Below, piece after piece: positions 1-63,328 of a DNA stretch of 64,000 nucleotides. Under the pieces are notes generated by a model, which was not told where the DNA came from, made no database searches, and saw only the letters and a program-made list of their open reading frames with translations. The stretch comes from an uncultured delta proteobacterium (GTDB lineage Bacteria; Desulfobacterota; WTBG01; JAGOGO01). Within the stretch, counting starts at the first letter, position 1. Every line of letters starts with the position of its first letter. The stretch lies in NCBI GenBank assembly GCA_963736755.1, contig CAVTQE010000023.1, positions 9,822-73,821 of the forward strand, given 5' to 3'. The position numbers and the translations under genes are program-made.

Positions 1-223
1 AGATAAAGTGGGCCGTGTTTTTTCCTGCCGTCACAATCAGCCATCCAACGATGGCACTCCAAAGGGCTACTTTTCCGGGAAGAAAGAGGGATACCAAAAA
101 CAGACCAGCGCCTACCTCGCCGAGAAAAAATGCGGTGGTGATTAACCATGCCCATTCTTTTTGAGGATTATAGCCGACCTCAAAGGTATCCTCTTCAAGA
201 AATTTAAAGTTCCTATGTAGCAT
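1..223 (-). CDS. NrfD/PsrC-like membrane subunit of the adjacent molybdoenzyme (5' part only; gene runs off the left edge)
   Basis: Own minus-strand translation from ATG 223-221 with GGAG upstream: MLHRNFKFLEEDTFEVGYNPQKEWAWLITTAFFLGEVGAGLFLVSLFLPGKVALWSAIVGWLIVTAGKNTAHFI. Hydrophobic helices; lies directly after the FeS subunit gene. Confidence 0.5.
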   Translation of the reverse strand, partial: MLHRNFKFLEEDTFEVGYNPQKEWAWLITTAFFLGEVGAGLFLVSLFLPGKVALWSAIVGWLIVTAGKNTAHFI

Positions 224-22572: not shown

Positions 22573-23030
22573 TCGTTAAAAAGCATATTCTTTTTCTCAC
22601 AATTAAGGGAGCGATTTCAAGAAAATATACAGGAGAGACCCCGTTTCTGGAAAAAATTGATTGTGTGCACTGTGCAAGCCGATTTTAAAAACTCTTTGCA
22701 TAACCAGGAATCACCGTTCCACCTCGAACCAGATGAATGCTTAAGTATCAGCCGTACCAACAGGCGCGAAACCAAAATTTTATGTGATTTATTCGTTGGG
22801 GCATTGACAACCCTTTCGAAAATGATAAGATCATGCCTGTCCGGGCAGTTTAAGAGTATTCCCATAATGCACTCAAATTCGAGAAGTTTTTGTCGGGGTT
22901 AGATAATGTTTGTTCTTCCAGACATATTCTCTGCTCTCGCGTTTATTACCAACCCGCGAAGGCGGTCTCATTTTTCTGCCATCTTATACCAAGTTGCATT
23001 CAAAAGCAGATCGAGGCGACGACGATCAAA

Positions 23031-23097
23031 ACGTGAAAAGTGCGACGTGAAGTGTGAAGTGTTTTAACACCTTACGTTTAACCTTTTACGATTTACG
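23031..23097. repeat. Word-hairpin block (H words)
   Basis: acgtgaaaagtgcgacgtgaagtgtgaagtg / tttt / aacaccttacgtttaaccttttacgatttacg. Confidence 0.7.
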
Positions 23098-23166
23098 AAA
23101 ACTGACGAGGAGACAACAAAGATATGCAAATGAAGGCGACTTGGTATTAGCAAAGGAGGATCACCC

Positions 23167-24530: not shown

Positions 24531-25816
24531 TTGAGTCTTTGCGTTATCGCCTGTTTAGGCTGCGTCATGAGTGATGCACCACCGCGTGATATAAAAACAG
24601 TGGCGCATGACTATATCCCGAAACTTGAAAAAAATTTACGCCAGAACATCGTCCCCTTCTGGCTGCAAAAAACTCTTGATCCGACAAACGGAGGCTACAC
24701 GATCAATTTCGGTCTCAACAGCGAACCCTTAGGACCGGGGGTCAAAATGATCGTCACCCAGGCACGCCAGGTCTGGTTTTTTTCACGGTTGGTACGCGAA
24801 GGATACGGCGGCAAGGAATGCCTGGATGCTGCGGAATTAGGCTATCGATTTCTCAAAGAGAAGATGTGGGACAAAAAACATGGCGGGTTTTACTGGCAGG
24901 TCGATGCCACGGGAAATAAGGTTCTCCTTGCCGGGAAGATGATGTGCGGCCAGGCTTTTGGCCTCTACGCTGTTGCCGAATATTATCTGGCCTGCAAAAA
25001 ACCAGAGGTCCTGACTTTTGCGCGGGAAATTTTTGAGCTTATGGAAGCCAAAGCCCATGACTCAGTGTACGGGGGCTACTGCGAGACCTTCGCTGAAGAC
25101 TGGTCTGTCCCAACCTCTCACTCGTTCCTATCTGGGAACGCCTTCTAACACCAAAACGATGAATACCCATCTCCATCTGCTGGAGGCCATGGCCAATTTT
25201 TATCGCGCCAGCGCATTACCGCTCGCCCGCGAGCGTCTGCTGGAGTTAATCCATATTCAAAGCACCACGGTGGTAAGAAAAAATGTGGGAGCATGTACGG
25301 ATAAATACCAGCGAGACTGGACACCGATGCTGGATGGTGACAATGCTCAGGTTGCTTACGGCCATTCTCTGGAAAATATCTGGCTGCTCATAGACGCCTG
25401 CGATGCAGCGGGCATTTCTCCCTCTCCTCTGCGTGATCTTTTTCAGACGCTTTTTAATTATGCGCTTCAAATATGGCTTTGATGAAAAAAAAGGAGGATT
25501 TTATCGCAGCGGCAACATAGTCAAAAACAGGGCAACAGACCGCAATAAGGTCTGGTGGGTTCAGGCGGAAGCCTTGGTCAGCGCCTTATATCTGTACCGT
25601 CTGACTCAGGACACAAAATACCTGGAGGTCTTTGCCAAAACCTACGATTTTATCGACAAGCACCAGGTAGATTGGCACAACGGCGAATGGTACGCCACCA
25701 TCACACCGCAAGGAAAGCCGGAAGGCAACAAAGCTGACCAGTGGAAAGCAGGCTATCACAACGGCCGGGCAATGATGGAATGTCTCAAAATTCTGAAAAA
25801 GGAACGGCGGGAATGA
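24531..25816 (+). CDS. N-acylglucosamine 2-epimerase (AGE) / cellobiose 2-epimerase family protein, three frame pieces
   Basis: NIVPFWL...NGGY...QARQVWFFS...; ...NTHLHLLEAMANFY...; ...GGFY...VWWVQAEALV...WKAGYHNGRAMMEC in successive frames. Confidence 0.85.
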
Positions 25817-26939: not shown

Positions 26940-27800
26940 TTACAGGAGTTTTTTCTCCACGTAGCGAACCCCGTTCCGAAAGATTTTAATTCCTAAGCCT
27001 TCTTCCGGCAAGGGGAGGCCTCGGCGCTTAAGGTCTTCTTTTTTCCGGGTCCAGTCAGGATGGTTGGTGAAATGGTTATAACCTTCAGGGTGGGGCATTA
27101 AGCCAAGGACGTGTCCGGTAGGGTCACAGATGCCAGCGATATCCCGGAGAGAACCATTCGGGTTATAGGGAAATTTTCCCCGCGCCGGCTTATTGTCAGG
27201 GGTGGCATATTGGAAGACAACGTGATGATCAGTAAAAAGTCTTTTGATAACCTCTTTCGGAGCAAAGAACTTTCCTTCTCCGTGACGAATCGGCAGCTCA
27301 ATGGTTTTAATCCCTTTGGTAAACACACACGGGGAGTGTAAGGTCTTCAGGTAAATCCAGTCATCGCGAAAATTTCCGCAGTCATTAAAGGTAAGCGCGA
27401 CATCGCGCGCCTTATAGTTGCCATCAAAACCAGGAAGGAGGCCCAGATTTACCAATGCCTGGAACCCGTTGCAGATCCCGATAATCAGCTTTCCCTCAGC
27501 AATGAACTCCTCAATCTGAGCGCCGAGGTTAAATTTAAAACGGCTGGCTAAAAGCACACCCGCCCCGTGGTCATCACCCCAGCTGAACCCCCCGTCAAAA
27601 ACCAGGATGTGGTAGTCTTTTAAAACCTCCTGATGCCCGATCGTCTCGCCCGTGATCAGCTCATTTATATGAACGCGGTGTGATTCAGCGCCGGCTATTT
27701 TTAAGGCATAATCAGTCTCATAGTCGCAGTTCAGTCCGTAGCCGGTCAAAACAAGTGCTTTTACTTTTTTCATCTCAGCGCCCCAAAAGTCTTTTTCCAC
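26940..27800 (-). CDS. purQ: Phosphoribosylformylglycinamidine synthase, glutamine amidotransferase subunit
   Basis: ...GGFSWGDD...GICNGFQALVNLGLLPG...HGEG... motifs; adjacent to purL. Confidence 0.9.
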   Translation of the reverse strand: MEKDFWGAEMKKVKALVLTGYGLNCDYETDYALKIAGAESHRVHINELITGETIGHQEVLKDYHILVFDGGFSWGDDHGAGVLLASRFKFNLGAQIEEFIAEGKLIIGICNGFQALVNLGLLPGFDGNYKARDVALTFNDCGNFRDDWIYLKTLHSPCVFTKGIKTIELPIRHGEGKFFAPKEVIKRLFTDHHVVFQYATPDNKPARGKFPYNPNGSLRDIAGICDPTGHVLGLMPHPEGYNHFTNHPDWTRKKEDLKRRGLPLPEEGLGIKIFRNGVRYVEKKLL

Positions 27801-30771
27801 GCGTGTTTTAATTCCGTGATATCAGCATCAATAAGTGTCCCTTTACCCTTCACTCCGTTAATTTTCAACCGTGGTTCTTCCGTTACTTCGCCAATGGCAG
27901 CAAAGCAGCATCCTTTTAAAACCGCTTCAAACTTTTCTTTGTTCTCCGGAGCAATGGTGACAAGAAACCGCCCCTGGGTTTCCGAGTAAAGGATGCGGTC
28001 ATTGGTCAGGTCTTCTTCCACGGGCACCGCGCTGAGGTCAATCGTTAAACCCAGACAACCGGCCATCGCCACTAAGGCGAGGTGAACGCCTAAGCCTCCC
28101 CGGTAAATCCCGTGCGCTGAAGCAACCCATTCTTCCTGAATGGCCGTGCTTAAAGCGCGATAGAGCGGAATGACGTCCTCAGTGTTTACTTTCGGAACAT
28201 TGAGTCCGATACAGCCAAAGCGGTCATAGTACTCTGATCCGCCCAGCTCATTGCGCGTTACCCCTAAAACATACACCACATCCCCCGGGATTTTAACATC
28301 CATGGTCACGCACTTTCGGATATCATCAATCACCGCGGTGGCAGTAAACTGAATCGTCGGCAGGCCGGAAATCTTCCGGGTCTCGCCATATCGGCCTTTA
28401 AGATTGCCGTCGATATACATGCTGTCTTTTCCGGAAAGCAACGGAATACCAAAGGCAAGGCAATAATCTTTTAACGCCCAGTTTGCCCGGACCAGTTGGG
28501 CAGCCTTAAGCTTGCCATCCGGATTGGAAACCGGATGGTACTGGATGGTAGGCCAGCAGAAGTTATCCACGCCCCCAATATCGTCAAGCTTCGCGCCCAC
28601 GGCAATGAGCCGTCGCACTGCCTCGTCAATCGTGCACCCGATCATGGGGTAGGTATCAATCTGACTATACGTGGGATTGATGGCCTGCGTGGCAGCCAGG
28701 CCCCGATACGATCCCAAAATCGGCCGAACCACAACCGCATCACTTGTCACATCCCGCTCTTTTCCTACCAGCGGCTTGATCACGCTTCCCCCTTGAACCT
28801 CATGGTCATACTGGCGGATAACCCATTCTTTGCTGGCAAGGTTCGGCCGCGAAAGAATGTCTTTGAGAAGACTCGCATGGTCTTCGGGTTCCATGATGAC
28901 CGGTTCGTACAAGCCACGAACGTTCGGGCGGCATCCACTCAGCATCAAACTCCCACTGGGGAAAATCAGATTTTAAAAGCTCGGTAGTGATATAAGCGCA
29001 GGTCTTCCCCTGATAGAGAATATGAATCTTGCCGGTGTTGGTGTATCTCCCGATGACCGTGCTTTCAACATCATGTTTCCGGGAAAGCTCCATAAAGCGT
29101 TTTTCATGTTCCGGCTTTACCGCTACCGTCATCCGCTCCTGGGATTCCGAAATCCAGATCTCCCATTGGTCAAGCCCCGAATATTTAAGCGGGACTTTAT
29201 CCAAATCAACCTCACACCCATTGCTGAACCGGGCGCTTTCCCCAATGGATGACGAAAGCCCGCCCCCGCCATTATCGGTGATAAAAGCGATCAGCCCTTC
29301 ATCCCTCGCCTCAAGCAAAAAGTCATGCATCTTCTTCTGAGTATACGGATCCCCAATTTGGACATGACCTGCGGGAGTGTGTTCGCTAAACCCTTCGGAA
29401 GCAGCAGTTACCCCATGGATGCCGTCTTTCCCTACGCGTCCCCCGGTCATAATGATAAGCTCACCGGGGGTCGTGGTCTTCATCTCACTCGGTCTTCCCT
29501 GAACGGAAAAAGGCATGATCCCCAGAGCGGTTACAAAAACCAAACACTTACCCAGGTAACTTTCATGGAAAAAGAGATTGCCAAAAGGCGTGGGCACGCC
29601 GCTTTTATTTCCTCCGTCCTTAACCCCGGTGATAACGCCGTCCAACAGCCTTCGGGGGTGGAGACGGGGTTTAAGCTCTCCCTGATAATCCCGAGAGGCA
29701 ACGCAGTACCCGTACATTCCTAAAATAAGCTTTGACCCTAAACCGGTCCCGAGCGGATCCCGGTAAACGCCCACAATCCCGGTAATGGACCCCCCGTAGG
29801 CCTCCATGTTGGAAGGGCTGTTGTGAGTCTCTCCGGTGATAGTATAGTAATGAAGGTCATCGAACCTCCCCACTCCCGCGTTATCCCAGAGCACGGAAAC
29901 CACCCAGGGTTTTTTCTTCTGAATGTCCAGGGTGGGCTCTTCAATGCAGGTCTTAAACAGATTATCCACTACCGTCTCTTTTCCGGTCGAAAGATCCTTA
30001 TAGCGGAAAAGCCCCTTAAAAGTATTGTGGTTGCAATGATCAGACCGGGCCTGGGCAATGTATTCAAGCTCAATATCCGTGGGAAGGTCAAGGCCCACTT
30101 CTCTCCGCTCGTTCCTTACCTCTTCCCGGAGAAAATACTCCCGGATCGTCGGAACATCCCGGGGGTTAAGCGCGAGGTTTCGCTCATCGCTTATCCGCAT
30201 CAGCTCTTCATCACTATCAATCGAAAAAGCCTTTACCGTTGGTATATGGCTCAACACAACCTTCGGAACCGTTAAGCCGATATTTCTTCTTGCGTCCTGG
30301 CTTCCCTTTTTCAAAAATTTTCCACTGCTGGATAAGATCATTAGCAAGTGATTCCCGGGCAATGAGGTTCACTTTTCCCTCATCCAAGCCCTTGCCCCGA
30401 ATACAGAAAAGCTTTGAGGTATAGCACGCCTCTTCTTCTTTAAAAGTAATTTTCAGGAGATCTTCAATCGCTTCTCTGGCTGTGCTCGCGGCCGTGTCCC
30501 GCACCCCGGGCCGGAACCCAACCCACACCGCCCAATCAAACTCAATCGCCAGGGCGTCAAAGCCGGAGACGTGAATGACCGGGTTCGTGAAAATCTTGGT
30601 TCTGATCTCTTCGAGTTGTGCCGCTGTGAACTCAGCATCAAGAGTAATAATGTTTATCAACCGCACTGAGTCCACGGTGATTCCAAAGTAGTCCTGGGCT
30701 TGCGCTTTTAACGACGCCCCTTCAGCGTCAAAAAGCTCGGGTTTAAGAGCAATTTCTATTTTTGCTACCAT
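27770..30771 (-). CDS. purL: Phosphoribosylformylglycinamidine synthase II with fused PurS-like N-terminal region; two frame breaks
   Basis: ORFs 30217-30900 (MVAKIEIALKPELFDAEG..., PurS-like; start taken at ATG 30771), 28806-30362 (ARSDHCNHNTF, GETHNSPS) and 27770-28948 are colinear. Confidence 0.9.
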
Positions 30772-41774: not shown

Positions 41775-42976
41775 GTGAACAAACACAGGAGGATGGTTAT
41801 GAAGATTGGAATAGGGTTTGTTTTCGTGGTTACATTTCTGTTTCTGGGTAGTGCTTTTGCTGCTGATCCTGTACCACCGCCGGTAGAGGAAAGCTGCGGG
41901 CCGAAATTCACCTTTGAGGCTGGGCCAATCGTGATGACTCGTCACCAGGACAACCAAGCTATTTTTTCAAGCCCGGGAAACCCAAGGAGCGGTGACCTTC
42001 TGAAAACTTCCATGATTGATGACGATTGGAGGGTCGGCGGTCAGGCACGGTTGACGGTTTCTTTCCCGTGTTTCTATCTGGATTTTGGCGGATTTTGGCT
42101 ACCATCCGGCTCCAACACAGAAAATAAACCTTTGCCGTTAGAAAGCAATACCATTGAAACGAGCCCCCCTACATTGTTTGATGGTCGAACTCAGATTCCA
42201 TGGTTGATGATGATTGGAGAGTCGGCGGTCAGGCACGTCTGACTGTTGCCTTCCCGTGTTTTTATCTTGATTTTGGCGGATTCTGGATACCATCCGGCTC
42301 CGACACGGTACATAAATTTGAGCCGGATGGCGAAAATACAATCGAAACGAGCCCTCCAACATTCTTTGGCGGCCCAACAGTCGGAGATGCTACGTTTAAA
42401 TATTCTTCGTCGATCTATAATTTGGATGGGAATATTGGGCACAGTTTTGCTCCCTGGTTATCGGCCTATGCCGGAGTCCGGTATTTGAGGTTAAAAGAAA
42501 AACTTGACATGTTTTCCCCCTTCGGCGGCTCTGATTATGAGGACGATAATTGGAAAGCAAAGAACTCAATGGTCGGCCCGCAGATCGGCGCACGGGCAGA
42601 CATTCTGAAGCTGATCGGCGTTTGCGAATCAAGTCCCTGGTCTTTAGATACCAACGTTGCTTTTGTGATCCTGCACAATCATGCGAAATCTGAATTTTCG
42701 CGAACTCCTGGCACTGCTACCTCTGGATCGGCATCATCAAACTTCTGGACCCCGGGCGTGGCTGCGGAGGCTGATCTGGGGTTTCGTTTGATGCGCAATC
42801 TTAAACTGGCGATCGGCTATCAGATGCTCTATCTCGACCGGGTTGCGCTCGCTACAAATCAGGTGGCAGGGACCGGGAACTTCAACGTGGTTGGCGGGGA
42901 AATCAATATGTCAGTAGAAAAAGACAGCGTTCTTTATCACGGCGGACTCGTAAGGTTTGTTATAGACCTGCCGTAG
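41775..42976 (+). CDS. Outer-membrane beta-barrel protein (BBP7-like impression) broken by an internal 188-bp tandem duplication
   Basis: Signal peptide KIGIGFVFVVTFLFLGSAFA. DDDWRVGGQARLTV(S/A)FPCFYLDFGGFW(L/I)PSGS occurs twice. C-terminal beta-strand pattern ends ...YHGGLVRFVIDLP. Confidence 0.6.
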
Positions 42977-50210: not shown

Positions 50211-50264
50211 ATGGAAAATGCTAATAGGATGTTACGTGGTCTCATTAAGTCATTGAAGAACTAA
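50211..50264 (+). pseudogene. 3' remnant of a four-helix-bundle (23S rRNA IVS protein family) gene
   Basis: MENANRMLRGLIKSLKN* compared with the end of 61842-62201 (...MQDVDRMLSGLIKSLKK*). The nucleotide similarity continues into the following ttcacttttcac words. Confidence 0.7.
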
Positions 50265-50392
50265 CTTTTCACTTTTCACGATTCACTTTTTACGCTTCAC
50301 GCTTTACGGTTTTTTTTAACGTTTAACTTTTCACTTTTACGTTTTACATTTCACGTTTTACTTTTTACTATTTCAAACAGAAGGACTTTGCC
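50265..50392. repeat. Word block (H words, single polarity)
   Basis: cttttcacttttcacgattcactttttacgcttcacgctttacgg...cgtttaacttttcacttttacgttttacatttcacgttttac. Confidence 0.7.
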
Positions 50393-51359
50393 ATGAGGTT
50401 AAAAAGAATCATTATCACCCGGTCGTGCTTCCTTCTGCTTTTTTTGGCTCTGCTTCTCCTTCAGGCCTGTTCCTATCCAACCACACCCCGGATCAAAAAA
50501 ACAGCACCAGCACCTGAAGGGCCATCAGCCAGCACTCCTCCGGAACAAAGCATTGGGAAAATTTTTCAAAAAAACGCTCCGGTACTTGTTTCCCAGCCGG
50601 AACGCAAAGAAAAAGAATATGAAATCGGTCCGGAAGATAGGCTGGAGATTAGGGTATGGGACCAGGAAGATCTCACGCGGGAAGTGTACGTGTCCCGGGA
50701 AGGAGTTTTTTCCTATCCTCTTATCGGCACGGTTCAGGCAGGTGGCCTCAGCGTGGAACAGCTCGAAAAAGAAATTGCTGACCGGCTCTCCAGAAAATAC
50801 ATCGTCAATCCCCAGGTTACGGTTACGGTAAAAGAGTTTAAGAGCAAAAAAGTCCTGGTGCTCGGCGAAGTCGGAGTCCCCGGAACTATATCCGTTAACC
50901 GGGAAGACCACCCTTTTGGAAATACTCACGAAAACCGGTGGCCCAACCACAAATGCCGGGATTGAGATAACCGTCATGCGGCCCCGGAAGACCCCCAACG
51001 CTCCTGGCTCTCAGGAAAGGTCAGCGAACAATGAGGTGATAAAAATAAATTTAAAAAGGCTTTTAGAAGGCGATACCTCCCAAAATATTTATCTCGAGCC
51101 GAACGATACGGTGTATTTTTCTAAAACTGGATTTTATTACGTGTACGGCGAGGTAAAATCTCCCGGGAGATACAACCTGGAAATGGGCACCACTGTACTG
51201 AAGGCGATCACCACTGCCGGCGGAGTAACGGAAAAGGCAGCAGTCAACCGGACCAAGGTAGTGCGGGAAAAAGCAGGACAAAAATCAGAGATGCGCGTCA
51301 AACTGACTGACCCGGTTGAACCAGAAGATATTATCGTGGTTCCGGAAAGCTTTTTCTGA
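50393..51359 (+). CDS. Polysaccharide export outer-membrane lipoprotein (Wza family), one frame break near 50905
   Basis: Lipobox LLLQAC, YEIGPEDRLEIRVW...PLIGTVQAGGLSVEQLEKEIADRL..., then YPLTGKTTLLEILTKTGG... (SLBB) in the second frame. Confidence 0.85.
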
Positions 51360-54261: not shown

Positions 54262-55229
54262 ATGATTGACCTTCACGCGCATATCCTTCCTGACCTTGAT
54301 GATGGGGCAAAAGACTGGCAGGAGACCCTTGATATGTGCGCCATTGCCTTGAATGACGGCATCCACACCATCGTGGCCACCCCCCATGTGAAACGAGGAA
54401 TGTACACCCCGGCCAAAAAACTTATCTTATCCAAGGTCGCCGAACTCAACCACCGCCTGCTCCATGCTCCGCTTACGCCTCCCGTCGTGTAAAACGTGAA
54501 ACGTAGAGATGTAACTCCTCACGCTTCACGCCCCGCGCCTCCCCGTCAAACGTAAAAAGTAAAACGTTAGAAGTAACTCCTCACGTTTCACAGTTCACGT
54601 TTCACGGATTAACAATTGTGCCCGGCGCTGACAACGCTTTTGAGCCGGATATCCTCGACCAATTAGAACAGGGAACTGCTTTGTATCTTGCCCACCCCAC
54701 CAACGCTATAAACGCACCAAACGCAATTAACGCGAATAACCCAACTACCCGTGAAATGCGAAGCATATTTCACCGGGACCCCACAAACCCTATAAACCCA
54801 ACCCTCCGCTACGTGCTCCTGGAGTTGTCCGATTATTTTCTTTTTCCTCAGGTGAAAGACCTCATCCGGAAACTCCGCGAAAAAAACATCGTGCCTGTCC
54901 TCAGCCACCCGGAAAGAATTGCCATGATCCAGAAAAATCACCAGCTCCTTCAGGCCTTCATTCAAGCCGGCGCTCTTTCCCAGGTAACCGCGATGAGCAT
55001 CACCGGTGAATTCGGAAAAGAAATTAAAAAACTTACCCGAACCCTGGTAAAGAAAAATCTGGCGCATGTTATCGCCTCTGATTCCCACTCAAAAGACCGC
55101 AGGCCGCCGATACTTTCACAAGCAGTCTCGGAGGTCGCTGACCTTATCGGCAGCGATAAAGCGGAACTGATGGTCCAGGGGATACCCCAGGCGATCATTG
55201 AAGGTAAGGAAATAAGATTAGATGATTAG
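54262..55229 (+). CDS. PHP-family protein-tyrosine phosphatase (CpsB/YwqE type), split by a 137-nt word-hairpin insertion and carrying a second in-frame insertion
   Basis: MIDLHAHILPDLDDG...TPH... (54262-54468), then GLTIVPGADN...SHPER...ASDSHS (54606-55229) in another frame. Confidence 0.8.
54469..54605 (+). repeat. Word-hairpin insertion inside the phosphatase CDS (two tandem units)
   Basis: Stops in all three frames (taa 54490, tga 54497, tag 54504). Contains the core gtcaaacgtaaaaagtaaaacgttagaagtaactcctcacg. Confidence 0.8.
54691..54808 (+). repeat. In-frame low-complexity insertion in the phosphatase CDS
   Basis: ccaccaacgctataaacgcaccaaacgcaattaacgcgaataaccc ... hairpin gtgaaat/atttcac ... 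ccacaaaccctataaacccaaccctcc. Confidence 0.65.
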
Positions 55230-55297
55230 AGGATTGGAAGGTTGGAAGGTTAGGGAATTAGATAATTAGATGGTTAGAAGATTGGATGGTTAGAGGG
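55217..55297. repeat. Word block (G words) overlapping the phosphatase stop
   Basis: gattagatgattagaggattggaaggttggaaggttagggaattagataattagatggttagaagattggatggttagaggg. Confidence 0.7.
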
Positions 55298-55299
55298 AA

Positions 55300-55665
55300 A
55301 TGGGGAAAAATTTTTATAGAGACCTGTTAGTCTGGCAAAAGAGTGTATCCTTGATAAAAGAGGTTTACGCTGAAGCTGACAAATTGCCAAAATCAGAGGA
55401 ATATAATCTGAAGCAGCAACTTAAAAGAGCAGTTGTTTCTGTTTCGTTAAATATTGCTGAAGGGAAAAATCGAAGATCCCCAAAAGATTTTATTAATTTC
55501 CTTAATATCTCAAATGGTTCTTTAGCGGAGACAGAAGCGATTTTATTGATATGCGGGGAACTTGGGTTTTTGCGTATTCCGGAAGATTTACTTTCCCATA
55601 TAGAAGAACTGGCAAAAATGATCAACAGCCTGATTGCCAACATAAGGGGGAAATTAGAAGGTTAG
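55300..55665 (+). CDS. Four-helix-bundle protein, 23S rRNA IVS protein / Avd-like family (copy 2)
   Basis: ...QLKRAVVSVSLNIAEGKNRRSPKDFINFLNISNGSLAETEA... Confidence 0.85.
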   Translation: MGKNFYRDLLVWQKSVSLIKEVYAEADKLPKSEEYNLKQQLKRAVVSVSLNIAEGKNRRSPKDFINFLNISNGSLAETEAILLICGELGFLRIPEDLLSHIEELAKMINSLIANIRGKLEG

Positions 55666-55904
55666 AGGATTAGAGGATTGGAGGGTTAGAAGATTGGAAA
55701 GTTGGATGATTAGAGGGTTAGGAGGAGACTAACTTGCAAACATCCCAACATCTAAACTTCTAATCTTCTATCGCGTCCAAACATCCAAACCTCTAAACCT
55801 CCAACCCTCTGAAGTTGCTAATCCGTCTAAAACTCTAAACATCGGGTCTTTGCCCTTAACCTTAACACTAAAACTTAACACTTAATTACTTAAATCTTAA
55901 CCCA
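55651..55904. repeat. Word-hairpin block: G words, then complementary words, then T words
   Basis: 55651-55728 ttagaaggttagaggattagaggattggagggttagaag... versus 55742-55830 acatcccaacatctaaacttctaatcttc...cctctaaacctccaaccctc; then cttaaccttaacactaaaacttaac. Confidence 0.7.
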
Positions 55905-58119
55905 ATGAACACGATTATTGAGTATGGCCTTATTTTCCTGATTATTTTTACCCCGCTCGCCTTTGGCTCAGTCCATGTCTGGGCATATACCATCGTGGAA
56001 GTTGTTGTCCTTCTTCTTCTTTTGATTTGGCTGTTAAAACATTTTACTTTTCACGATTCACGTTTCACGTCTTCACTTTTCACGTTTCACTTTTCACGCA
56101 TTCACCCGTACTTTCACATTTCACTCTTTACGTTTTACGATCCCCTTTTCCCTCTTCCTGGGCCTGATCCTTTTCCAGATGGTTCCAATACCTGCGACAG
56201 TAATAAAACACCTGTCCCCCAATACCTATGATCTCTACCAGCAAACCATCGGAAATCCGTTAAACGTAAAAAGTAAAACGTTAAATGTTACTACGTCCCT
56301 CGCTGATAGCTCATTGCCGATAGCAAAACCCATGAGCCACGAGCTATCACATTTCACGTCCTATGATCCATTTACACAAACGCCACCAAAACCGAATTTC
56401 TCAAATTCTTTGCCTACTTCTCCGTATTTTTTCTCATCATCACGACCATGACCACCACGCGTCAGATACGACGAATAGTACTGACGATTATTTTCACCGG
56501 AACCGGCGTTGCATTTTTAGCGCTCTGCCAGATACTCAGCAAGTCAGATAAAATCTACGGGTTCTGGCAGTCTCAGCAGGCTCTGCACAAGATCGGAATC
56601 TACGGCGGTCAGATCGGAAAGATCGGAAGCTACGGCGGTCCTTTTATCAATCCCAATCACCTGGCCGGCTACCTGGAGATGGTTATCCCTCTCGCGCTCG
56701 GGTTTTTGCTCAGCCGCGAGGTACCGGGCATCATTCGTTCGGCAAAAAACTGGAAACGACGGCTTTCCCTGCTTGAATCCTGGCTTGCGAAAAATACCCT
56801 CCTTATCTTCATTATCGTCCTGATGGCATCAGCGGTCTTTATTTCTGCCTCGCGGGGCGGGATTATTTCTTTTATTTTTTCTTTAGGGTTATTTTCCCTG
56901 CTGCTCGGAGTGCGAAGATACCACAAGGGAAAAAGAAAGATGGTGCTGCTTATCACCGGATTAATATTCATTTTTCTTCTGTGGATGGGCATTGGCCCGG
57001 TAGTCACCGAACTCGCTACCCTCGCCGATCCCAAGACCTCCGGCTTAGTGGTACGGCTCCAGGTATCGAAAGATACCCTTGCCCTGGCACGGGACTTTCC
57101 CCTCTTCGGGGTCGGGCTGGGTAATTTTCAAACTCTCTATCCTAAATATCAAACATTTATCTACCCCTTCTTCTGGGACCACGCTCATAATGATTACGTG
57201 GAAATGCTCGCCGATACCGGCTGGATGGGGCTGCTCTTATTTTTTGGTGGAATCTGGTTGGTGCTTTTCGCCATCATCAAAACGTGGAAGCAAAGGCGAG
57301 ACCCATTTCTGGCGGACATAACCCTCGGTGGTTTTATCGGCGCAGTGTCTCTTCTGTGCCATTGCCTGGTAGATTTTAACCTCCACATTCCTGCCAATGC
57401 CTTTCTCCTTTTTGTGATCCTGGGACTGATGGTCGCTGCGGTTAATATCAAAAAAAAGGGAGAAGAAGATTTTTCTTTCCTTCCAATCCGCGCCGTTTCT
57501 TTCTCGCCCAAAACAAGAACTGCGCTGATCATGGCAAAAGCCCTCATAATAGTGTTCCTGCTTACCCTGGTGATGAAAGATTATCTGGCGTATCATTTTT
57601 TTAGTAACTACCAATCCCTCAAGCCGAGCGAGTTCTCACTCGCCGCCTCCCTCGTTAAACGTAAAAAGTAAAACGTTAGAAGTAACTCCTCACAGTTCAC
57701 GTTTCACGTTTCACGTTTTACTCACCCGGGCCATCTTTTTTGATTCGGGTAATGCACCGTATCATTATGAGCTGGGTAATTATTATGCCCGCAAGATGAG
57801 CGAATCCTGGAAACGGGGAACCTCGAACATACCAGGAGAACAATGGGTCTTTGACGCTGAAAAAAATGCCCGATTTTTTGGACTTAAGGCTTTACAGGCG
57901 TATGCTGATGCGGTAAACTTGTCTCCGGCCAATGCCTGGTATCATTTTTATCTAGGATGGACCCTGAGCGAATTAAAGCGGTTTTCGGATTTCTCCCAAC
58001 ATCCGATCCCGCTTGCGGAACCTTTTGACGCGGAAACAGAATTTTCCCGGGCCCTCATGCTCGATCCAAACAATGAAAATATTAAAAAATATATAACGGC
58101 CGTAAAACCTGGAGGTTAA
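55905..58119 (+). CDS. O-antigen-ligase-like (Wzy_C) membrane protein with C-terminal TPR-like tail, interrupted three times by word-hairpin insertions
   Basis: ORFs 55905-56231, 56179-56451, 56448-57671 and 57796-58119 are colinear. Core ...FWDHAHNDYVEMLADTGWMG... Confidence 0.75.
56038..56140 (+). repeat. H-word insertion 1 inside the ligase CDS
   Basis: attttacttttcacgattcacgtttcacgtcttcacttttcacgtttcacttttcacgc...; no stop in frames 0 and 1. Host frame changes from 0 to 1. Confidence 0.75.
56254..56366 (+). repeat. Word insertion 2 inside the ligase CDS (core element plus S-complement words)
   Basis: gttaaacgtaaaaagtaaaacgttaaatgttac...gctgatagctcattgccgatagc...catgagccacgagctatcac. Host frame changes from 1 to 0. 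Confidence 0.75.
57654..57725 (+). repeat. Word-hairpin insertion 3 inside the ligase CDS
   Basis: gttaaacgtaaaaagtaaaacgttagaagtaactcctcacagttcacgtttcacgtttcacg; about 90% identical to 54545-54607. Confidence 0.8.
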
Positions 58120-58127
58120 AGAAAAAA

Positions 58128-58240
58128 GTTTTAAGGGTTAAGATTTAAGGGTTAAAGAACTTAAAACTTAATTACTTAAATCTTGTGTTTTTCACTTTTT
58201 ACGTTTCACGGTTAACCGTTTACGGCGTTTCACTTGGAAA
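58128..58240. repeat. Word-hairpin block (T then H words)
   Basis: gttttaagggttaagatttaagggttaaagaacttaaaacttaattacttaaatctt...ttcactttttacgtttcacgg. Confidence 0.7.
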
Positions 58241-58246
58241 GGCTTT

Positions 58247-59380
58247 TTGATGTGGAAATTTTTTCTAACCTTTTTTATTACTTACGGCACGATGCACTCC
58301 TTGTTTTACCACCGCGTGCGCGTGCTTCTGCCTGACCAGCGCTGGATTCACGGCCTGGTCATAGTCCTCCTGGTGCTGCTGGTTATCGTTCCGGTGAGCA
58401 GTATTTTCCTGGACAGGAGCGGTCATGCCGAATCAGCGCGACTGGCGGCGCTCATCGGCTTCAGCTGGATGGGGTTTCTTTTCTTCGCGTCGATTCTGGC
58501 TGTCGGCATGGATATTTTGGATATCCTTTCCTGGACAGGAAGGAGAATCTTCGCCCGGGATCTTCCCACACTGTGGGGAAAAGGGCCAGCGATAATAATG
58601 CTGGCATCAGCGCTTCTTATCTGTGTTTACGGAGTTTTCGACGCACGTCGTATCCGCGTGGAGCGAATAACCGTCGCGACGGACAAACTGCCGGCGGGGG
58701 CGCAGCGCCTGCGAATTGCCCAGATCTCCGACGTGCATATAGGCCTGCTCATCGGAAAGCCCCTTCTCAGCACTATTATCGGGATTCTCAACCGGGAGCA
58801 GCCTCAGATCGTGGTCTGCACCGGTGACCTGCTCGACAGCTCCGGTCATATCGATGGGCTTTCACCCCTCCTTAAGCAAATACAGCCCCGATACGGCAAA
58901 TATGCCGTTATCGGTAACCACGAGTGCTACCTTGGCCTTGCCCGTTCGCTGGCGTTTCTCGACCAAGCCGGGTTCAGGGTGGTTCGCAACCAGGTAATGA
59001 CCAATGGGGGAATCATCAACATTGCCGGGGTCGATGACCCCGCGGCGGGAATCAAAACGGACGAGGTCGCCCTGCTCTCCTCCATACCGAACAAACTCTT
59101 CACCCTGTTTCTCAAACATCAGCCAAACGTGCCAACAGAAACGCACGGGCTTTTTGATCTCCAACTGTCCGGTCACACCCATAAGGGCCAGCTGTTTCCT
59201 TTCGGCTATGTGGTTTCCCTTTCTTATCACTACCTGGCGGGATTCTATCCTTTAAGCAAAGGATCATCGCTTTACACCAGCCGCGGCACCGGCACCTGGG
59301 GCCCTTCCATGAGAGTGCTGTCACCGCCGGAAGTCACCATCATCGATGTGGAGAGCAGCCGAGCTGTTCGTAAAAAGTAA
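58247..59380 (+). CDS. Membrane-anchored metallophosphoesterase (calcineurin-like)
   Basis: N-terminal TM helices; ISDVHIG, CTGDLLD, GNHE, GVDD, SGHTHKGQ motifs. Confidence 0.85.
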   Translation: MMWKFFLTFFITYGTMHSLFYHRVRVLLPDQRWIHGLVIVLLVLLVIVPVSSIFLDRSGHAESARLAALIGFSWMGFLFFASILAVGMDILDILSWTGRRIFARDLPTLWGKGPAIIMLASALLICVYGVFDARRIRVERITVATDKLPAGAQRLRIAQISDVHIGLLIGKPLLSTIIGILNREQPQIVVCTGDLLDSSGHIDGLSPLLKQIQPRYGKYAVIGNHECYLGLARSLAFLDQAGFRVVRNQVMTNGGIINIAGVDDPAAGIKTDEVALLSSIPNKLFTLFLKHQPNVPTETHGLFDLQLSGHTHKGQLFPFGYVVSLSYHYLAGFYPLSKGSSLYTSRGTGTWGPSMRVLSPPEVTIIDVESSRAVRKK

Positions 59381-59504
59381 AGCACGAGGCGAAAGGAGTA
59401 AAGAGTTAGGTGTTAAATACCGTAAATCGTAAAGGGTAAACAGTAAAAGGTTAAAGGTTAAAAGTAAACAGTAAAAACTAAAGACTGATACCAAAAAGTG
59501 AAAG
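59381..59504. repeat. Word block (cgtaaa/gtaaac words) 5' of four-helix copy 3
   Basis: ccgtaaatcgtaaagggtaaacagtaaaaggttaaaggttaaaagtaaacagtaaaaac...aaaaagtgaaag. Its complement words follow the gene at 59862-59935. Confidence 0.7.
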
Positions 59505-59861
59505 ATGGATTCAAGACAACATAGAAAATTAGACGTCTGGAAAAGGTCAATGGAGTATGTAAGAGAAATTTATAAGCTTACTGAGTCTTTCCCAAAATCA
59601 GAGGCCTATGGCCTGACTTCCCAGATGAGGAGATCATCTATATCTATCCCGAGCAATCTGGCAGAGGGAGCTGCACGCAAAGGTACAAAGGAATTCAGTC
59701 AATTTTTAAATATCGCTCAGGGGTCTATCAGTGAGCTTGACACTCAAATAGAGCTGGCTTTTATGCTGAATTATATTGATAAGCAAAGTTATGAAGATCT
59801 GATGGAAAAGTTAAAAGCAATATCTAAAATGTTGTTCGGCTTGTCAAGGTCACTAAAATGA
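59505..59861 (+). CDS. Four-helix-bundle protein, 23S rRNA IVS protein / Avd-like family (copy 3)
   Basis: ...QMRRSSISIPSNLAEGAARKGTKEFSQFLNIAQGSISELDTQ... Confidence 0.85.
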   Translation: MDSRQHRKLDVWKRSMEYVREIYKLTESFPKSEAYGLTSQMRRSSISIPSNLAEGAARKGTKEFSQFLNIAQGSISELDTQIELAFMLNYIDKQSYEDLMEKLKAISKMLFGLSRSLK

Positions 59862-59935
59862 CAACTGATAAAAGTTAATTTTCACTTTTCACTTTTCACT
59901 TTTTACGCTTAACGACAAAATAAAGGAAAAAGATT
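59862..59935. repeat. Word block (H words) 3' of four-helix copy 3
   Basis: gttaattttcacttttcacttttcactttttacgcttaacg...gattcgaggcacgaag. Confidence 0.7.
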
Positions 59936-60000
59936 CGAGGCACGAAGATCGGGGATAAATTTACCGAAAACAATAAAATTTAAAACGGGAAGATGATCAC

Positions 60001-60546
60001 ATGGATATAGTCAAGCTTGAAAAAGTCGAAAACAAAATCATTGAAATAAGAGGTCAAAAGGTTTTGCTGGATGCTGATGTTGCAGAAATTTACGGTGTTG
60101 AGACGCGAGATATCAATAAAGCCGTGACAAATAATCCGGATAAATTTCCTGAGGAATATGTTGTTGAACTCTCAAAATCTGAAAAAAGAGAACTGGTGGA
60201 AAATTTCCACCGGTTCAATAAGCTAAAGCATTCTACGGTAAATCCTAAAGCATTTCCTGAAAAGGGCTTGTATATGCTTGCTACCATACTCAAAAGCGAA
60301 AAAGCAACTTCGACAACTATCGCTATCATTGAGACTTTTGCCAAGATAAAAAACCTGTCAAACAATATCAAGGAGCTGTCAAAAAGCCGGCATGATAAAC
60401 AAAGGCAAAATCTTCTTCAGAAAAGCGGAGACATTATTTCCGATATACTCTATGACGATTTAGTCACAAATGAAAGTGAGACAAGCTTCGAGATAAACTT
60501 TGCGGTGTTGAAATTCAAGCACACCATCAAAAAAAGTAAAAAATGA
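60001..60546 (+). CDS. ORF6N-domain (KilA-N-related) DNA-binding protein
   Basis: KIIEIRGQKVLLDADVAEIYGVETRDINKAVTNNPDKFPEEYVVELS... Confidence 0.8.
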   Translation: MDIVKLEKVENKIIEIRGQKVLLDADVAEIYGVETRDINKAVTNNPDKFPEEYVVELSKSEKRELVENFHRFNKLKHSTVNPKAFPEKGLYMLATILKSEKATSTTIAIIETFAKIKNLSNNIKELSKSRHDKQRQNLLQKSGDIISDILYDDLVTNESETSFEINFAVLKFKHTIKKSKK

Positions 60547-60612
60547 ATATCCGAGGAACGAGAATTAAGGGTTAAGGGGCAAGGTTAAAGGCGTGAGGAA
60601 GAGGGAAAAAGA
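60547..60612. repeat. Word block 5' of four-helix copy 4
   Basis: cgaggaacgagaattaagggttaaggggcaaggttaaaggcgtgagg. An approximate complement lies at 61112-61150. Confidence 0.6.
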
Positions 60613-61023
60613 ATGAAACTTACTCGTTTTGAAGACCTCGACTGCTGGCAGGAAGCCAGAAAATTAGTGAAAAGTGTCTATGGAGTAACGAGGGGCGACT
60701 CATTCAAAAAAGACCTTCGGCTCTGCGGACAGATTCAGGCAGCAAGTTCTTCGGTGATGGCAAATATAAGTGAGGGGTTTGTAAGAAGGTCGAACAAAGA
60801 ATTTACTCAATTCTTGTTTATTGCCATGTCATCTTCTGCTGAAGTTCAGAGCCACCTTTATAGCGCCTTAGACCAGGGGTACATCAATCAAGCGCAGTTT
60901 GATGACATTTACAACCAAGCCACGAAAACAGCGAAGATTATATCTGGGCTCATTACTTATTTGAGAAATAACGAGAAACAATATAAACTCAACAAACCAG
61001 AAAAACAGAAGAAACCAAATTAA
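60613..61023 (+). CDS. Four-helix-bundle protein, 23S rRNA IVS protein / Avd-like family (copy 4)
   Basis: ...QIQAASSSVMANISEGFVRRSNKEFTQFLFIAMSSSAEVQS... Confidence 0.85.
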   Translation: MKLTRFEDLDCWQEARKLVKSVYGVTRGDSFKKDLRLCGQIQAASSSVMANISEGFVRRSNKEFTQFLFIAMSSSAEVQSHLYSALDQGYINQAQFDDIYNQATKTAKIISGLITYLRNNEKQYKLNKPEKQKKPN

Positions 61024-61111
61024 CCAAAGAGACTAAAGAAACCAGAGAAACCAGATAAACCAGATAAACCAGATAAACCAGAGAAACCAAATAAACCAGA
61101 GAAACCAAACA
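61022..61111 (+). repeat. 9-nt tandem repeat (aaccagaga/aaccagata), about 10 units, starting at the stop codon of copy 4
   Basis: Eight clean units at 61040-61111 plus two degenerate units. In frame with the ORF they would read KPEKPDKPDKPDKPEKPNKPEKPNK. Confidence 0.85.
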
Positions 61112-61233
61112 AACGTTTCACGTTTTACTTTAACCCTTTATCCTTTTAATTATTCACTCATTCACTTATTTACTTATTTACTTATTAACTTATTAACTCA
61201 TTAACTCATTTACTTTTTAATGTAGTTAAATCT
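61112..61233. repeat. Word block (H, T-complement, L words)
   Basis: acgtttcacgttttactttaaccctttatcc...ttcactcattcacttatttacttatttacttattaacttattaactcattaactcatttac. Confidence 0.7.
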
Positions 61234-61734
61234 ATGGGAAAATCCTGGTTTGTCGTCCACACCAAACCCAGTCAGGAAGAAAACGTGGCCATGCATCTTA
61301 AGCGCAAGGGGATCGAGACCTACCTGCCCAAGATTGAGACCTGCGTTTATAACGGCCTAAAAAAAATTAAAAAGACCAAGTCACTTTTTCCCAATTATCT
61401 TTTTGCCGGGTGCGAAAGAAAAAACATCACTCAGGTCTGCTGGACCAGGGGAGTAAAAAAAGTGCTTTGGGAAAACAACGCTCCCCAGCCCATCAACGAT
61501 GAACTGATTTTCTCACTTAAGTCTTTAACTGGCGATGACGGTTTGATCCGCCCTCCACAATGGGACACGTACCAAAAGCATGATCTGGTTTTGATTACCT
61601 CCGGTCCTTTCAAGGACCTCTACGCCCTCTTTGACCATTGGGAGTCGGATAAGGAGAGGGTCTGTTTACTGCTCAAGCTTTTAAATGCCCAGATCCGGGT
61701 TACTGTGCCAGCGGCTCTCGTGGCAATAGCGTAA
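61234..61734 (+). CDS. NusG-family paralog (RfaH/UpxY-like operon-specific antiterminator)
   Basis: WFVVHTKPSQEENVAMHLKRKGIETYLPKI (NGN domain) and a KOW-like C-terminus (DLVLITSGPFKDLYALF). Confidence 0.8.
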   Translation: MGKSWFVVHTKPSQEENVAMHLKRKGIETYLPKIETCVYNGLKKIKKTKSLFPNYLFAGCERKNITQVCWTRGVKKVLWENNAPQPINDELIFSLKSLTGDDGLIRPPQWDTYQKHDLVLITSGPFKDLYALFDHWESDKERVCLLLKLLNAQIRVTVPAALVAIA

Positions 61735-61841
61735 CGGCGCCATGCGCCGGATATCGTGAATCGTAAGGCGTGAAAAGTGAGGAGCAACATTTAACGTTTT
61801 ACATTTTACGTTTTACGTTTTACGTCTAACGGAGTTTAGGG
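61735..61841. repeat. Word-hairpin block containing an inverted copy of the core element
   Basis: cgtgaatcgtaaggcgtgaaaagtgaggagcaacatttaacgttttacattttacgttttacgttttacg. Confidence 0.7.
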
Positions 61842-62201
61842 ATGTTAAACAAACCTCATAAAAAACTGGATGTATGGAAAAAGGCAATCGATTTGGTGCA
61901 GCAGATATATGATCTGACAAAAACTTTCCCGAAAAATGAAGATTACAGCCTAACCAGCCAAATGAGAAGAGCTGCGATATCAGTACCCTCTAACATAGCG
62001 GAAGGAGCAGCGCGGCAAACCAAAAAAGAATTCATGCAATTTCTTCATATGGCACAAGGTTCGCTGAGCGAATTGGATACACAGATAGAAATAGCAAAAA
62101 GATTAGGATATTTCAGTGAGGATCAAACCAAAAAAATATTCGAGATTATGCAAGATGTTGATAGGATGTTAAGTGGTCTCATTAAGTCATTAAAGAAATA
62201 A
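61842..62201 (+). CDS. Four-helix-bundle protein, 23S rRNA IVS protein / Avd-like family (copy 5)
   Basis: ...QMRRAAISVPSNIAEGAARQTKKEFMQFLHMAQGSLSELDTQ... Confidence 0.85.
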   Translation: MLNKPHKKLDVWKKAIDLVQQIYDLTKTFPKNEDYSLTSQMRRAAISVPSNIAEGAARQTKKEFMQFLHMAQGSLSELDTQIEIAKRLGYFSEDQTKKIFEIMQDVDRMLSGLIKSLKK

Positions 62202-62300
62202 CTTTTCACTTTTCACTTTTCACGTTTTACGTTTTACGGTTTTTAACGCTTTTCACATTTTACTAATTTACTTTTCACTTTTTAACTTATTAACCCTTTT
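62202..62300. repeat. Word block (H and L words)
   Basis: cttttcacttttcacttttcacgttttacgttttacgg...cttttcacattttactaatttacttttcactttttaacttattaaccc. Confidence 0.7.
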
Positions 62301-62482: not shown

Positions 62483-62637
62483 ATGGATTCGAGACAACAT
62501 AGAAAATTAGACGTCTGGAAAAGGTCAATGGAGTACGTAAGAGAAATTTATGAGCTTACCGAGTCTTTCCCCAAATCAGAGGTCTATGGTTTGCGCTCGC
62601 AAATGCGTCGAACGGTTGTATCAATACCCAGCAATCT

Positions 62638-62924
62638 TCACCCTGTTAAATAGCTTGAAGTAAGAATGCATTATTATACATATGTCCTACAAAGCATGAA
62701 TGATATGAATTTCTATACAGGGTATACAAAAAACCTCAAACTAAGATTTGAGCACCACAATAAAGGCCTTGTTGAGTCGACAAAAGACAGAAGACCATTC
62801 AAATTGATTTATTATGAAGCATGTCTGAATCAGAATGATGCAATAAAACGAGAAAAGTATTTAAAAACATACCATGGTAAGATGTTTTTGTATAAAAGGC
62901 TCAAATCTTATTTAACCGGGTAAA
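62638..62924 (+). mobile_element. 287-nt insertion carrying a GIY-YIG nuclease ORF, bounded by 12-nt imperfect terminal inverted repeats
   Basis: ccctgttaaata (62641-62652) versus tatttaaccggg (62909-62920), 11/12 complementary. It replaces 4 nt (g gca) of the NLAEG motif. Confidence 0.75.
62666..62923 (+). CDS. Small GIY-YIG nuclease family protein
   Basis: YYTYVLQS...FYTGYTKNLKLRFEHHNKG...FKLIYYEAC...AIKREKYLK (GIY...YIG, conserved Arg and Glu); 85 aa. Confidence 0.9.
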   Translation: MHYYTYVLQSMNDMNFYTGYTKNLKLRFEHHNKGLVESTKDRRPFKLIYYEACLNQNDAIKREKYLKTYHGKMFLYKRLKSYLTG

Positions 62925-63189
62925 GAAGGTTCCGGCAGTACCTCAAAGAAAGAATTTATACAATTTCTTAATATCGCAAGGCGATCAACCTTCGAAAATG
63001 CAAATATGATTATCGTGTTTGAGAAACGGAGTCTAATAATGTGAGTTAAGAGACGAGCTATTGATTAGACCTTGAGCAGGAGTTCGGATGCACACTAATT
63101 TTATAAAAGCTGTTACGGGAAAACTAACCCCTTGCTCCGTGATCACTGACAGCTGGGAAAAGGGCTCATTCCAAGCTCCATGCTCCATG

Positions 63190-63328
63190 CCCCATGCTTT
63201 TTAACGTTTACGTTTCACGTTTTACATTTAACGTTTCACGTTTCACTTTTCACGTTTCACTTTTCACGGTCTTTTCACCTTTCACTTTTCACGGTCTTTT
63301 CACCTTTCACTTTTTTCGGAGCTAACCC
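63190..63328. repeat. Word block (H words, single polarity)
   Basis: aacgtttacgtttcacgttttacatttaacgtttcacgtttcacttttcacgtttcacttttcacggtcttttcacctttcacttttcacgg... Confidence 0.7.

Follow-up and report, generated by a model that had tools for sequence, protein, structure and literature searches.

The stretch of DNA analyzed here (the window, 64,000 nt of contig CAVTQE010000023.1) comes from an uncultured free-living bacterium of the sulfate-reducer type, a Thermodesulfobacteriota metagenome-assembled genome for which the nearest named PurL homolog is 94% identical. It contains a hairpin repeat of roughly 60 to 75 bases, here called the core hairpin, that is located in a polysaccharide cluster of capsule and O-antigen genes. 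In gene order, this cluster begins with wza, a PF05635 gene, a gene for a 737-aa tyrosine kinase, a CpsB-type phosphatase gene, another PF05635 gene, and the gene for an O-antigen-ligase/TPR protein (the ligase). These are followed by a metallophosphoesterase gene, a PF05635 gene, an ORF6N gene, a PF05635 gene, a NusG-like gene, and two further PF05635 genes. PF05635 is the family of the 23S rRNA intervening sequence (IVS) protein, a four-helix bundle. Tandem arrays fill nearly all spacers between 50 and 64 kb; their units are 7 to 9 nt long and imperfectly repeated, and the arrays often occur as inverted pairs flanking one of six PF05635 genes or a short loop.

The core hairpin is a genuine repeat with six copies in the window, four of them strong (54539-54611, 57648-57720, 61750-61822, and 23027-23102) and two degenerate (54478-54535 and 56253-56370) (Table 1). 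The 37-nt string AAACGTAAAAAGTAAAACGTTAGAAGTAACTCCTCAC is present without mismatch at 54548-54584 and again at 57657-57693, for which the chance expectation is 0, and GTAACTCCTCAC occurs three times (54511, 54573, and 57682). The core can be aligned with three further copies: the diverged one at 56259, its partner in tandem at 54488, and the inverted one at 61755-61838. A hidden Markov model trained on four copies and a covariance model (R1) trained on twelve recovered every one of the copies that the original prediction had listed and added a sixth, in a spacer at 23027-23102. With the exact repeat, the alignments, both models, and the fold z-scores given below, the proposal of a recurrent hairpin element with at least five copies is confirmed.

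Table 1. Core hairpin copies, related cassettes, a second hairpin family, and split genes, in window coordinates unless another source is named.
Feature	Position	Strand	Context or remark
Core copy, young subfamily	54536..54611	+	CpsB-type phosphatase, site 1
Tandem partner, older type, loop AGATGTAACTCCTCAC	54478..54535	+	Nested in C-rich array upstream of core
Ligase site 1, TTTCACG-type array alone (right arm without left arm)	56040..56140	+	
Ligase site 2, older-type core copy (GTTAAACGTAAAAAGTAAAACGTTAAATGTTAC), open frame LNVKSKTLNVTTSLADSSLPIAKPMSHELSHFTS	56253..56370	+	
Ligase site 3, young-subfamily core copy, 5' extension TCGCCGCCTCCCTCG	57644..57722	+	
Intergenic inverted copy	61747..61838	-	Spacer between NusG-like gene and PF05635 gene 61842..62201
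Intergenic diverged copy, loop GTGTTTTAACAC, no open frame	23027..23102	-	Model matches
Parent-type cassette: PF05635 gene + 3' arm TTTTCAC/TTTTACG	61842..62252	+	
Second same-arm cassette: (GTAAAAR)n, PF05635 gene 59505..59861, (TTTTCAC)n	59380..59935	+	
Second hairpin family, gctgatagctcattgccgatagc...catgagccacgagctatca (nested gctgatagctcattgcc hairpin)	56300-56350; L010 395-460; P0027 residues ~55-80		
purL, 2 overlapping ORFs	27770-30362		
wza, 2 ORFs	50393-51359		14 nt shorter than L013 at break
Molybdopterin oxidoreductase, 3 ORFs	1809-3881		
GlcNAc 2-epimerase, 3 ORFs	24531-25816		

Related contigs are designated here by L numbers and related proteins by P numbers. A scan of public metagenome contigs for the loop and left arm returned five contigs, all with the orthologous phosphatase. 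A corresponding scan of genome contigs from GTDB representatives returned nine single matches in unrelated genomes, the number expected by chance, and a scan of viral contigs for the element gave no match. The peptide encoded by the element was also searched in a collection of 5.8 billion proteins, where it retrieved only small spurious open reading frames (ORFs) in the TTTCACG arrays of other genomes.

In the phosphatase copy, the left arm reads GTCAAAC, GTAAAAA, GTAAAAC, and GTTAGAA, the loop is GTAACTCCTCAC, and the right arm is built from TTTCACG-type units. Its open frame, SNVKSKTLEVTPHVSQFTFH, continues into the downstream phosphatase ORF, as the frame at ligase site 3, SPPPSLNVKSKTLEVTPHSSRFTFHVLL, leads into the TPR tail of the ligase. 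At ligase site 2 the loop encloses a hairpin of a second family. Where the window has an array alone at ligase site 1, the contigs L013 and L016 and the protein P0027 have a full in-frame core copy. The inverted copy near the NusG-like gene has a longer left arm (four GTAAAAY units) and a loop that retains ATGTTGC, and it has no open frame. The loop had been described as conserved; it is exactly so within the young subfamily, and the older copies have ATGTTRCTCCTCAC in its place or carry the nested second hairpin. When folded as RNA, the sense strand of 54540-54612 reaches -18.3 kcal/mol (z = -4.6 against shuffles) and the antisense strand -32.3 kcal/mol (z = -7.4), several A.C mismatches becoming G.U pairs.

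Six-frame translation of each copy that lies within a coding sequence, in the window and in relatives, gave a single orientation and a single stop-free sense frame, reading (S/L)NVKSKTL(E/N)VT(P/T)H, and all four such sites use it. The original prediction had held that one specific frame is always open. This is correct for the three copies within coding sequences of the window and fails for the two intergenic copies and for the tandem partner, where all three sense frames are stopped (TAA at 54490, TGA at 54497, TAG at 54504, and TAA at 54512). An open frame is by itself unremarkable, since 84% of shuffled 63-mers keep at least one. Each 7-nt unit shifts the phase by one, and therefore three perfect GTAAAAC units place TAA in all three frames; on the other strand GTGAAAC likewise gives TGA in all three, and GTTTCAC is open in all three. 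The copies within genes carry TAA or TAG in two of three phases only, because their first unit is GTCAAAC or GTTAAAC and their fourth is GTTAGAA, and it is to this that the stop-free frame is due. Because all four sites within genes use the open frame and the extragenic copies lose it, the open frame is a matter of survivorship under selection on the host gene, and the idea that the element has a coding constraint of its own, raised in the original prediction, is not supported, on the same evidence and on the shuffles.

The relatives show how the host genes accommodate the element. In five metagenome contigs the ortholog of the phosphatase carries the element in the same place, and in all five the gene is one uninterrupted ORF through the element, in the frame SNVKSKTLEVTPH. 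The ligase ORF is likewise unbroken across a core copy at site 1 in L013, L016, and P0027 and at site 2 in L011, and in both L013 and L016 a single frame spans sites 1 and 2. L013 is syntenic with the window from 48.3 to 57.6 kb at about 80% nucleotide identity. Since the phosphatase and ligase frames of these relatives run into the element and out of it again without a break, the element is most probably translated, as a loop insert, and the suggestion that it persists in genes without terminating translation is upheld. Compared with the solved structures of YwqE and CpsB, the part of the phosphatase in which sites 1 and 2 are found is longer by some 36 residues; it lies between two alignable blocks, and the insert region itself does not align with either structure. 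In the source genome the phosphatase really is truncated, because the tandem partner closes all three frames, unless that partner copy is an artifact.

A candidate source for the element lies in the same cluster. The cassette at 61842-62252 and positions 295-709 of L016 share 85% identity across 415 nt, comprising the ORF and the 3' arm, and the two are placed differently: that of the window follows the NusG-like gene, and that of L016 separates the kinase gene from the CpsB gene, a place at which neither L013 nor the window has the cassette. At the place of the 59505 cassette, L017 has a hairpin with no ORF, and L013 has no counterpart of the window's cassette at 55300. On the left side, the 5' arm and ORF start of the L016 cassette, GCGTAAAATGTTGCAAAAACCTCAT, are collinear with ACGTTAAATGTTGCTCCTCAC of the miniature copies, and the L016 stretch ending in GCGTAAGGCGTAAAATGTTGCAAAAACCTCAT aligns collinearly with their left arm and loop ending in GTAAAACGTTAAATGTTGCTCCTCAC. 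The 13-mer CGTWAAATGTTRC is found without mismatch only in two miniature copies of the window, in that of L011, and at the start of the four-helix-bundle ORF of L016; its other exact matches are due to chance, in loci preselected with an overlapping pattern. On the right side, the window cassette ends in TAA followed by CTTTTCAC (in a longer form, TAA followed by CTTTTCACTTTTCAC), and CCTCA joined to CTTTTCAC gives CCTCACTTTTCAC, exactly the junction in the 61755 copy.

Judged by these alignments, the core hairpin appears to descend from a PF05635 cassette that lost its ORF by internal deletion, and to be akin to a miniature inverted-repeat transposable element (MITE). If what the miniature form lacks is the ORF from roughly codon 6 onward to its stop, then the orientation found within coding sequences is the sense of the lost ORF, and the TPH of the translated insert would correspond to the KPH of MLQKPHKKL. 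The GAGGAG of the antisense loop was considered as a relic of the cassette's Shine-Dalgarno sequence and dropped, the orientation in coding sequences being the sense of the ancestral ORF. Two ORF ends coincide with left-arm units: the metallophosphoesterase ends in AVRKK and a stop (59368-59380) within CGTAAAAAGTAAA, the first left-arm units of the 59505 cassette, and at 57659-57671 that string also closes the ligase fragment (VKRKK and a stop).

The best overall explanation, to which we assign a probability of about 60%, is that the core hairpin is a miniature derivative of such a cassette that survives within genes in one translated frame and that the frame breaks seen around it in the window are 1-nt indels, apart from the closure of the phosphatase frame by the nested partner copy. 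The parent would be a PF05635 cassette with inverted arms of 7-nt units at its flanks, (GTRAAAN)n for the 5' arm and (NTTTYAC)n for the 3' arm. Internal loss of the ORF, beginning near the sixth codon and reaching to the stop, would have left the 5' arm, ATGTTRC..CCTCAY, and the 3' arm. Copies were pasted into or beside existing TTTCACG-type arrays, in spacers and in surface-polysaccharide genes; they may have moved by homology-guided conversion between arrays or with the help of a trans-acting factor. Within genes, only copies in the sense orientation and in the single stop-free frame would survive, and translation would yield a low-complexity insert, (S/L)NVKSKTL(E/N)VT(P/T)H plus SRFTFH repeats, where the phosphatase and ligase are poorly conserved. 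The main idea of the original interpretation is thus largely right: its small mobile element under selection not to terminate host translation is supported, as a copy-and-paste element that stays in a gene only if translation can run on, and its coding constraint is not.

The sites themselves vary strongly among orthologs. At the phosphatase site, the spacing between conserved anchors is 66 nt in L015 and L016, 117 nt in L013, 182 nt in the window, 237 nt in L011, L012, and L014, and 279 nt in L010, and this range identifies the site as a growing and shrinking stack of in-frame modules. L015 and L016 have only CCTCAC and the right arm there, and the gene is intact without the left arm. Compared with these two, L013 is longer by 58 nt (left arm plus loop) and shorter by one 7-nt unit, a net difference of +51 nt in frame, which is as compatible with a left half that was lost as with one that was gained through conversion anchored in the array already present. 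Ligase sites 1, 2, and 3 have different low-complexity inserts in every ortholog. The left half is constant: at 54545-54584 the left arm and loop of the window are 100% identical to those of L010 to L014, whose host genes agree with it at 82 to 88% of third codon positions, while the right arm diverges freely among them. This identity points to recent conversion or to a sequence-specific recognition of the left half. For comparison with phase-variable simple-sequence contingency loci, in which changing numbers of perfect tandem units switch a frame on and off, the units here are 7 nt long, not a multiple of 3, and a one-unit difference accompanies the 58-nt insertion between L013 and L015; the arrays are imperfect, with 70 to 80% matches.

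Several points weigh against the best explanation. Miniature and cassette have little unique sequence in common, some 13 nt and CCTCAY. Neither a clean target-site duplication nor a clean empty site was found, occupied sites being hypervariable in every ortholog, and for that reason the insertion events cannot be cleanly reconstructed. The check for duplications suggested in the original prediction gave weak 5-nt candidates, CTCAC for site 3 and CTCCT for the phosphatase, neither of them at a cleanly empty site, and the 86-nt CTCAC..CTCAC interval at site 3, considered as a target-site duplication, found no support at other sites. No transposase, reverse transcriptase, or RAYT (Y1 transposase) is among the best 25 of 90 families in a window-wide Pfam scan, the other 65 being single-member families. 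Few copies are known, those in coding sequences are all in two neighboring genes, and local gene conversion over 3 kb could yield two near-identical copies without transposition. Finally, the left arm and loop are identical at 40 of 40 nt between the window and L013, where host-gene third positions agree at only 82%, and inert junk alone does not account for this.

A more speculative extension of the cassette origin would meet this last point. The PF05635 cassettes may themselves be autonomous mobile elements whose arms are recognized by the four-helix-bundle protein or by a recruited partner, and the core hairpin might then be mobilized in trans. We regard this as a tentative proposal with the odds well against it; it would explain why the left arm and loop stay 100% identical despite some 18% divergence at host third positions.

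Among the rival explanations, two retain some weight, though each is unlikely. The hairpin could be a functional RNA or DNA structure, such as an RNase III site, a stabilizer, or an antisense or regulatory element, with its presence in genes incidental. The far better antisense fold, which depends on conserved G.U pairs, is consistent with this, as are the 40 identical nucleotides in genomes with a diverged host gene and the location of intergenic copies directly upstream or downstream of genes. However, only 1 of 14 pairs shows covariation, and neither an Rfam family nor a terminator pattern fits; at a permissive threshold Rfam gave only subthreshold microRNA-precursor look-alikes, as for any hairpin. 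A general G.U asymmetry, considered as a sign of selection at the RNA level, was discarded since it is present in the core family alone among the hairpin families of the window. The phosphatase genes of L015 and L016 are intact without the whole left arm, and at ligase site 1 of L015 the left-arm units are replaced and no hairpin forms.

The other of these two explanations dispenses with mobility. The 7-nt arrays would have expanded locally by slippage and template switching, and the similarity across sites would be convergent or due to conversion between neighbors. TTTCACG-type arrays are indeed present at the same sites in all orthologs, even in those without the left arm, and unit numbers vary among relatives, as in the +58 and -7 nt by which L013 differs from L015. 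Similar intragenic heptanucleotide-repeat elements are also described for Geobacter metallireducens in the pertinent passages of PMC2700814. Array dynamics do not explain, however, why a nonrepetitive loop and a 14-nt 5' extension are common to copies in different genes, why the same unique sequence stands at the start of a PF05635 ORF, or how copies come to lie at 23 kb and 61.7 kb, distant from both genes. We therefore consider a purely local origin improbable, to about the same degree as a functional structure.

It is much less probable still that the peptide NVKSKTLEVTPH is a functional protein module under selection at the amino acid level. It is conserved in several orthologs, but the stretches around it vary in length and content in every one, it is dispensable in L015 and L016, and its host region in the phosphatase is the unalignable surplus over YwqE and CpsB noted above. 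The conservation is also at the nucleotide level and includes synonymous positions.

The frame breaks of the window bear on the last alternative. Frameshifts affect unrelated genes across the window, not the element sites alone (Table 1); for purL, a JGI protein with 93 to 99% identity is a single ORF across the switch point. In the ligase, three 1-nt edits restore a 737-aa ORF that is collinear with its orthologs: deletion of one A of AA 57621-57622, in host sequence about 20 nt upstream of site 3, which gives YQSLSRASS as in P0006; addition of a C at CC 56368-56369, as judged against the orthologs; and any 1-nt deletion inside 56040-56144. The breaks are most likely indel errors of an error-prone assembly. 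More generally, the split genes look like the product of an error-prone (perhaps long-read) assembly or of a decaying genome, and the related ENA contigs L017 and L018 are more fragmented still. Because 1-nt edits restore the ligase and unrelated genes are frameshifted as well, the continuity of the open frame with the host ORF on one side only, which the original prediction had treated as a trait of the element, is not a property of the element and reflects single-base indels found all over the window.

Post-transcriptional handling of interrupted genes, by intron-like excision, ribosomal bypass, or programmed frameshifting, would suit the frame changes at four of four element-bearing sites in the window and the shift-prone AAA AAG TAA at which the incoming frame of site 3 ends, but it is scarcely credible given the single-frame read-through in relatives, the fact that at each site a single 1-nt edit, made in host sequence or in a homopolymer, restores the ORF, the frameshifts in unrelated genes, and a partner copy that shuts all three frames beyond rescue by recoding. 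Restoring the host ORF does not require that the element be removed or skipped, as orthologs read through it and 1-nt edits outside the core suffice; a programmed +1 frameshift at AAA AAG TAA, bypassing, and an intron were rejected on the window-wide frameshifts and the 1-nt ligase repairs.

Other repeats and inserts occur alongside the core hairpin. The second hairpin family, which in translation would read in frame as ADSSLPIAK..SHE, lies within the core loop in the window, downstream of the core in L010 to L014, and upstream of it in P0027; because its position relative to the core differs in this way, it moves independently of the core. The phosphatase has a second hypervariable in-frame insert, HPTNAINAPNAINANNPTTREMRSIFHRDPTNPINPT, at 54690-54810, with a different length in every ortholog and with 9-nt arrays flanking a hairpin, cccgtgaaatgcgaagcatatttcaccggg. 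At 56585-56640 the ligase has 13 extra residues (QALHKIGIYGGQIGKIGSYGG, as compared with QYKIGSYGG in orthologs) that include two copies of a 9-nt tandem repeat, AGATCGGAA. In L015, ligase site 1 (5044-5116, P0007) has all left-arm units changed from GTAAAAN to GTCAGGN, with the peptide SGVRSQASDV; the loop and right arm are retained and the hairpin is lost. GTCAGGA-type arrays are also found at the kinase gene ends of L013 and L016 and at ligase site 3 of L016.

The array-bearing spacers lie at 50264-50375, 55216-55901, 58126-58215, 59380-59500, 60973-61220, 62199-62294, and 63170-63314, with units of the types TTTCACG, GATTAGAK, TTAAGGG, AAACCAGAG, and TTAACTCA; L013, though syntenic, has a wholly different spacer content. 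Within 62483-62923, a PF05635 gene breaks off after codon 56 (profile positions 1-46 of 106), and a gene for an 85-aa GIY-YIG nuclease (62666..62923) follows directly, as if an IVS-protein gene had received an insertion of the homing-endonuclease type. Elsewhere, a 188-nt tandem repeat (1.9 copies, 81% matches) is present at 42008-42368, in a putative beta-barrel porin region (ORFs 41775-42976).

In its way of working the core hairpin most resembles the Rickettsia palindromic elements (RPEs; Ogata et al. 2000), which, as summarized in PMC10969869, are short palindromic repeats that occur in unrelated protein genes in one compatible frame and are translated as an extra peptide. That summary also places them in tolerant parts of proteins and in intergenic regions and states that their transposase is not known. 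Here too a palindrome lies inside protein genes and is compatible with one reading frame. Unlike RPEs, the present element is about half the size (about 60 to 80 versus about 100 to 150 nt), has arms of 7-nt tandem units, resides in an unrelated host lineage (Thermodesulfobacteriota), has a nameable candidate parent cassette, and is so far of low copy number. The comparison covers the way of working alone, and we do not claim membership. Intragenic MITEs can also form in-frame fusions, according to the account in PMC10969869. Like MITEs, the core hairpin is short and noncoding, has terminal inverted repeats and several copies, and would be a small internal-deletion derivative of a larger element with both inverted ends kept. 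It differs from them in that the parent-like cassette encodes a PF05635 four-helix bundle rather than a transposase and in that no clean target-site duplication was found; its movement may be array conversion rather than transposition.

23S rRNA IVSs exist both with and without a PF05635 ORF. Like them, the elements of the window have a long stem around a short loop or a PF05635 gene and are sporadic among close relatives. Unlike them, these elements lie between or inside protein-coding genes rather than in helix 25 or 45, in a window without rRNA, and the copies within genes appear to be translated rather than excised. Cyanobacterial small dispersed repeats and short tandemly repeated repetitive (STRR) heptamer arrays, said to have been described by Elhai et al. 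in 2008 and Mazel et al. in 1990, are reportedly tiny, self-nesting, found in hairpins, and able to leave coding sequence unbroken. They are of other sequence and lineage than the present element, and we know of no cassette parent for them.

For the array makeup, the "multicopy nucleotide sequences" of Geobacter metallireducens are a precedent; the passages concerned of PMC2700814 describe them as arrays of 7- or 8-nt units, some in inverted pairs, both intergenic and intragenic, and take them for RNA elements or binding sites of regulators. The short units, the occurrence at times of several arrays per gene, and the related phylum-level group are points of likeness; the units differ from ours, and those passages name neither a use of the reading frame nor a link to PF05635. 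Taken together, the behavior matches that of RPEs and in-frame intragenic MITEs, the architecture that of 23S rRNA IVSs, and the array makeup that of the Geobacter precedent. By their defining features, the element belongs to none of these families.

Arrays and hairpins of this kind coincide with frame breaks in an error-prone assembly, and annotation may wrongly call split genes there. In-frame intragenic palindromes are best documented in Rickettsia; here they occur in a free-living member of the Thermodesulfobacteriota, with a plausible parent element. The chief value of the element rests mainly on its link to IVS-protein cassettes. If that link is true, it would join three poorly understood things, the sporadic IVSs of 23S rRNA, the IVS-protein/Avd-like family, and the short-unit arrays of spacers and protein loops. 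Mobilization in trans, if it occurs, would give the large IVS-protein family a role and would explain how IVSs arrive in rRNA genes. The IVS-protein/Avd-like family is very large, and the link, if true, would also offer concrete substrates for binding and cleavage tests.

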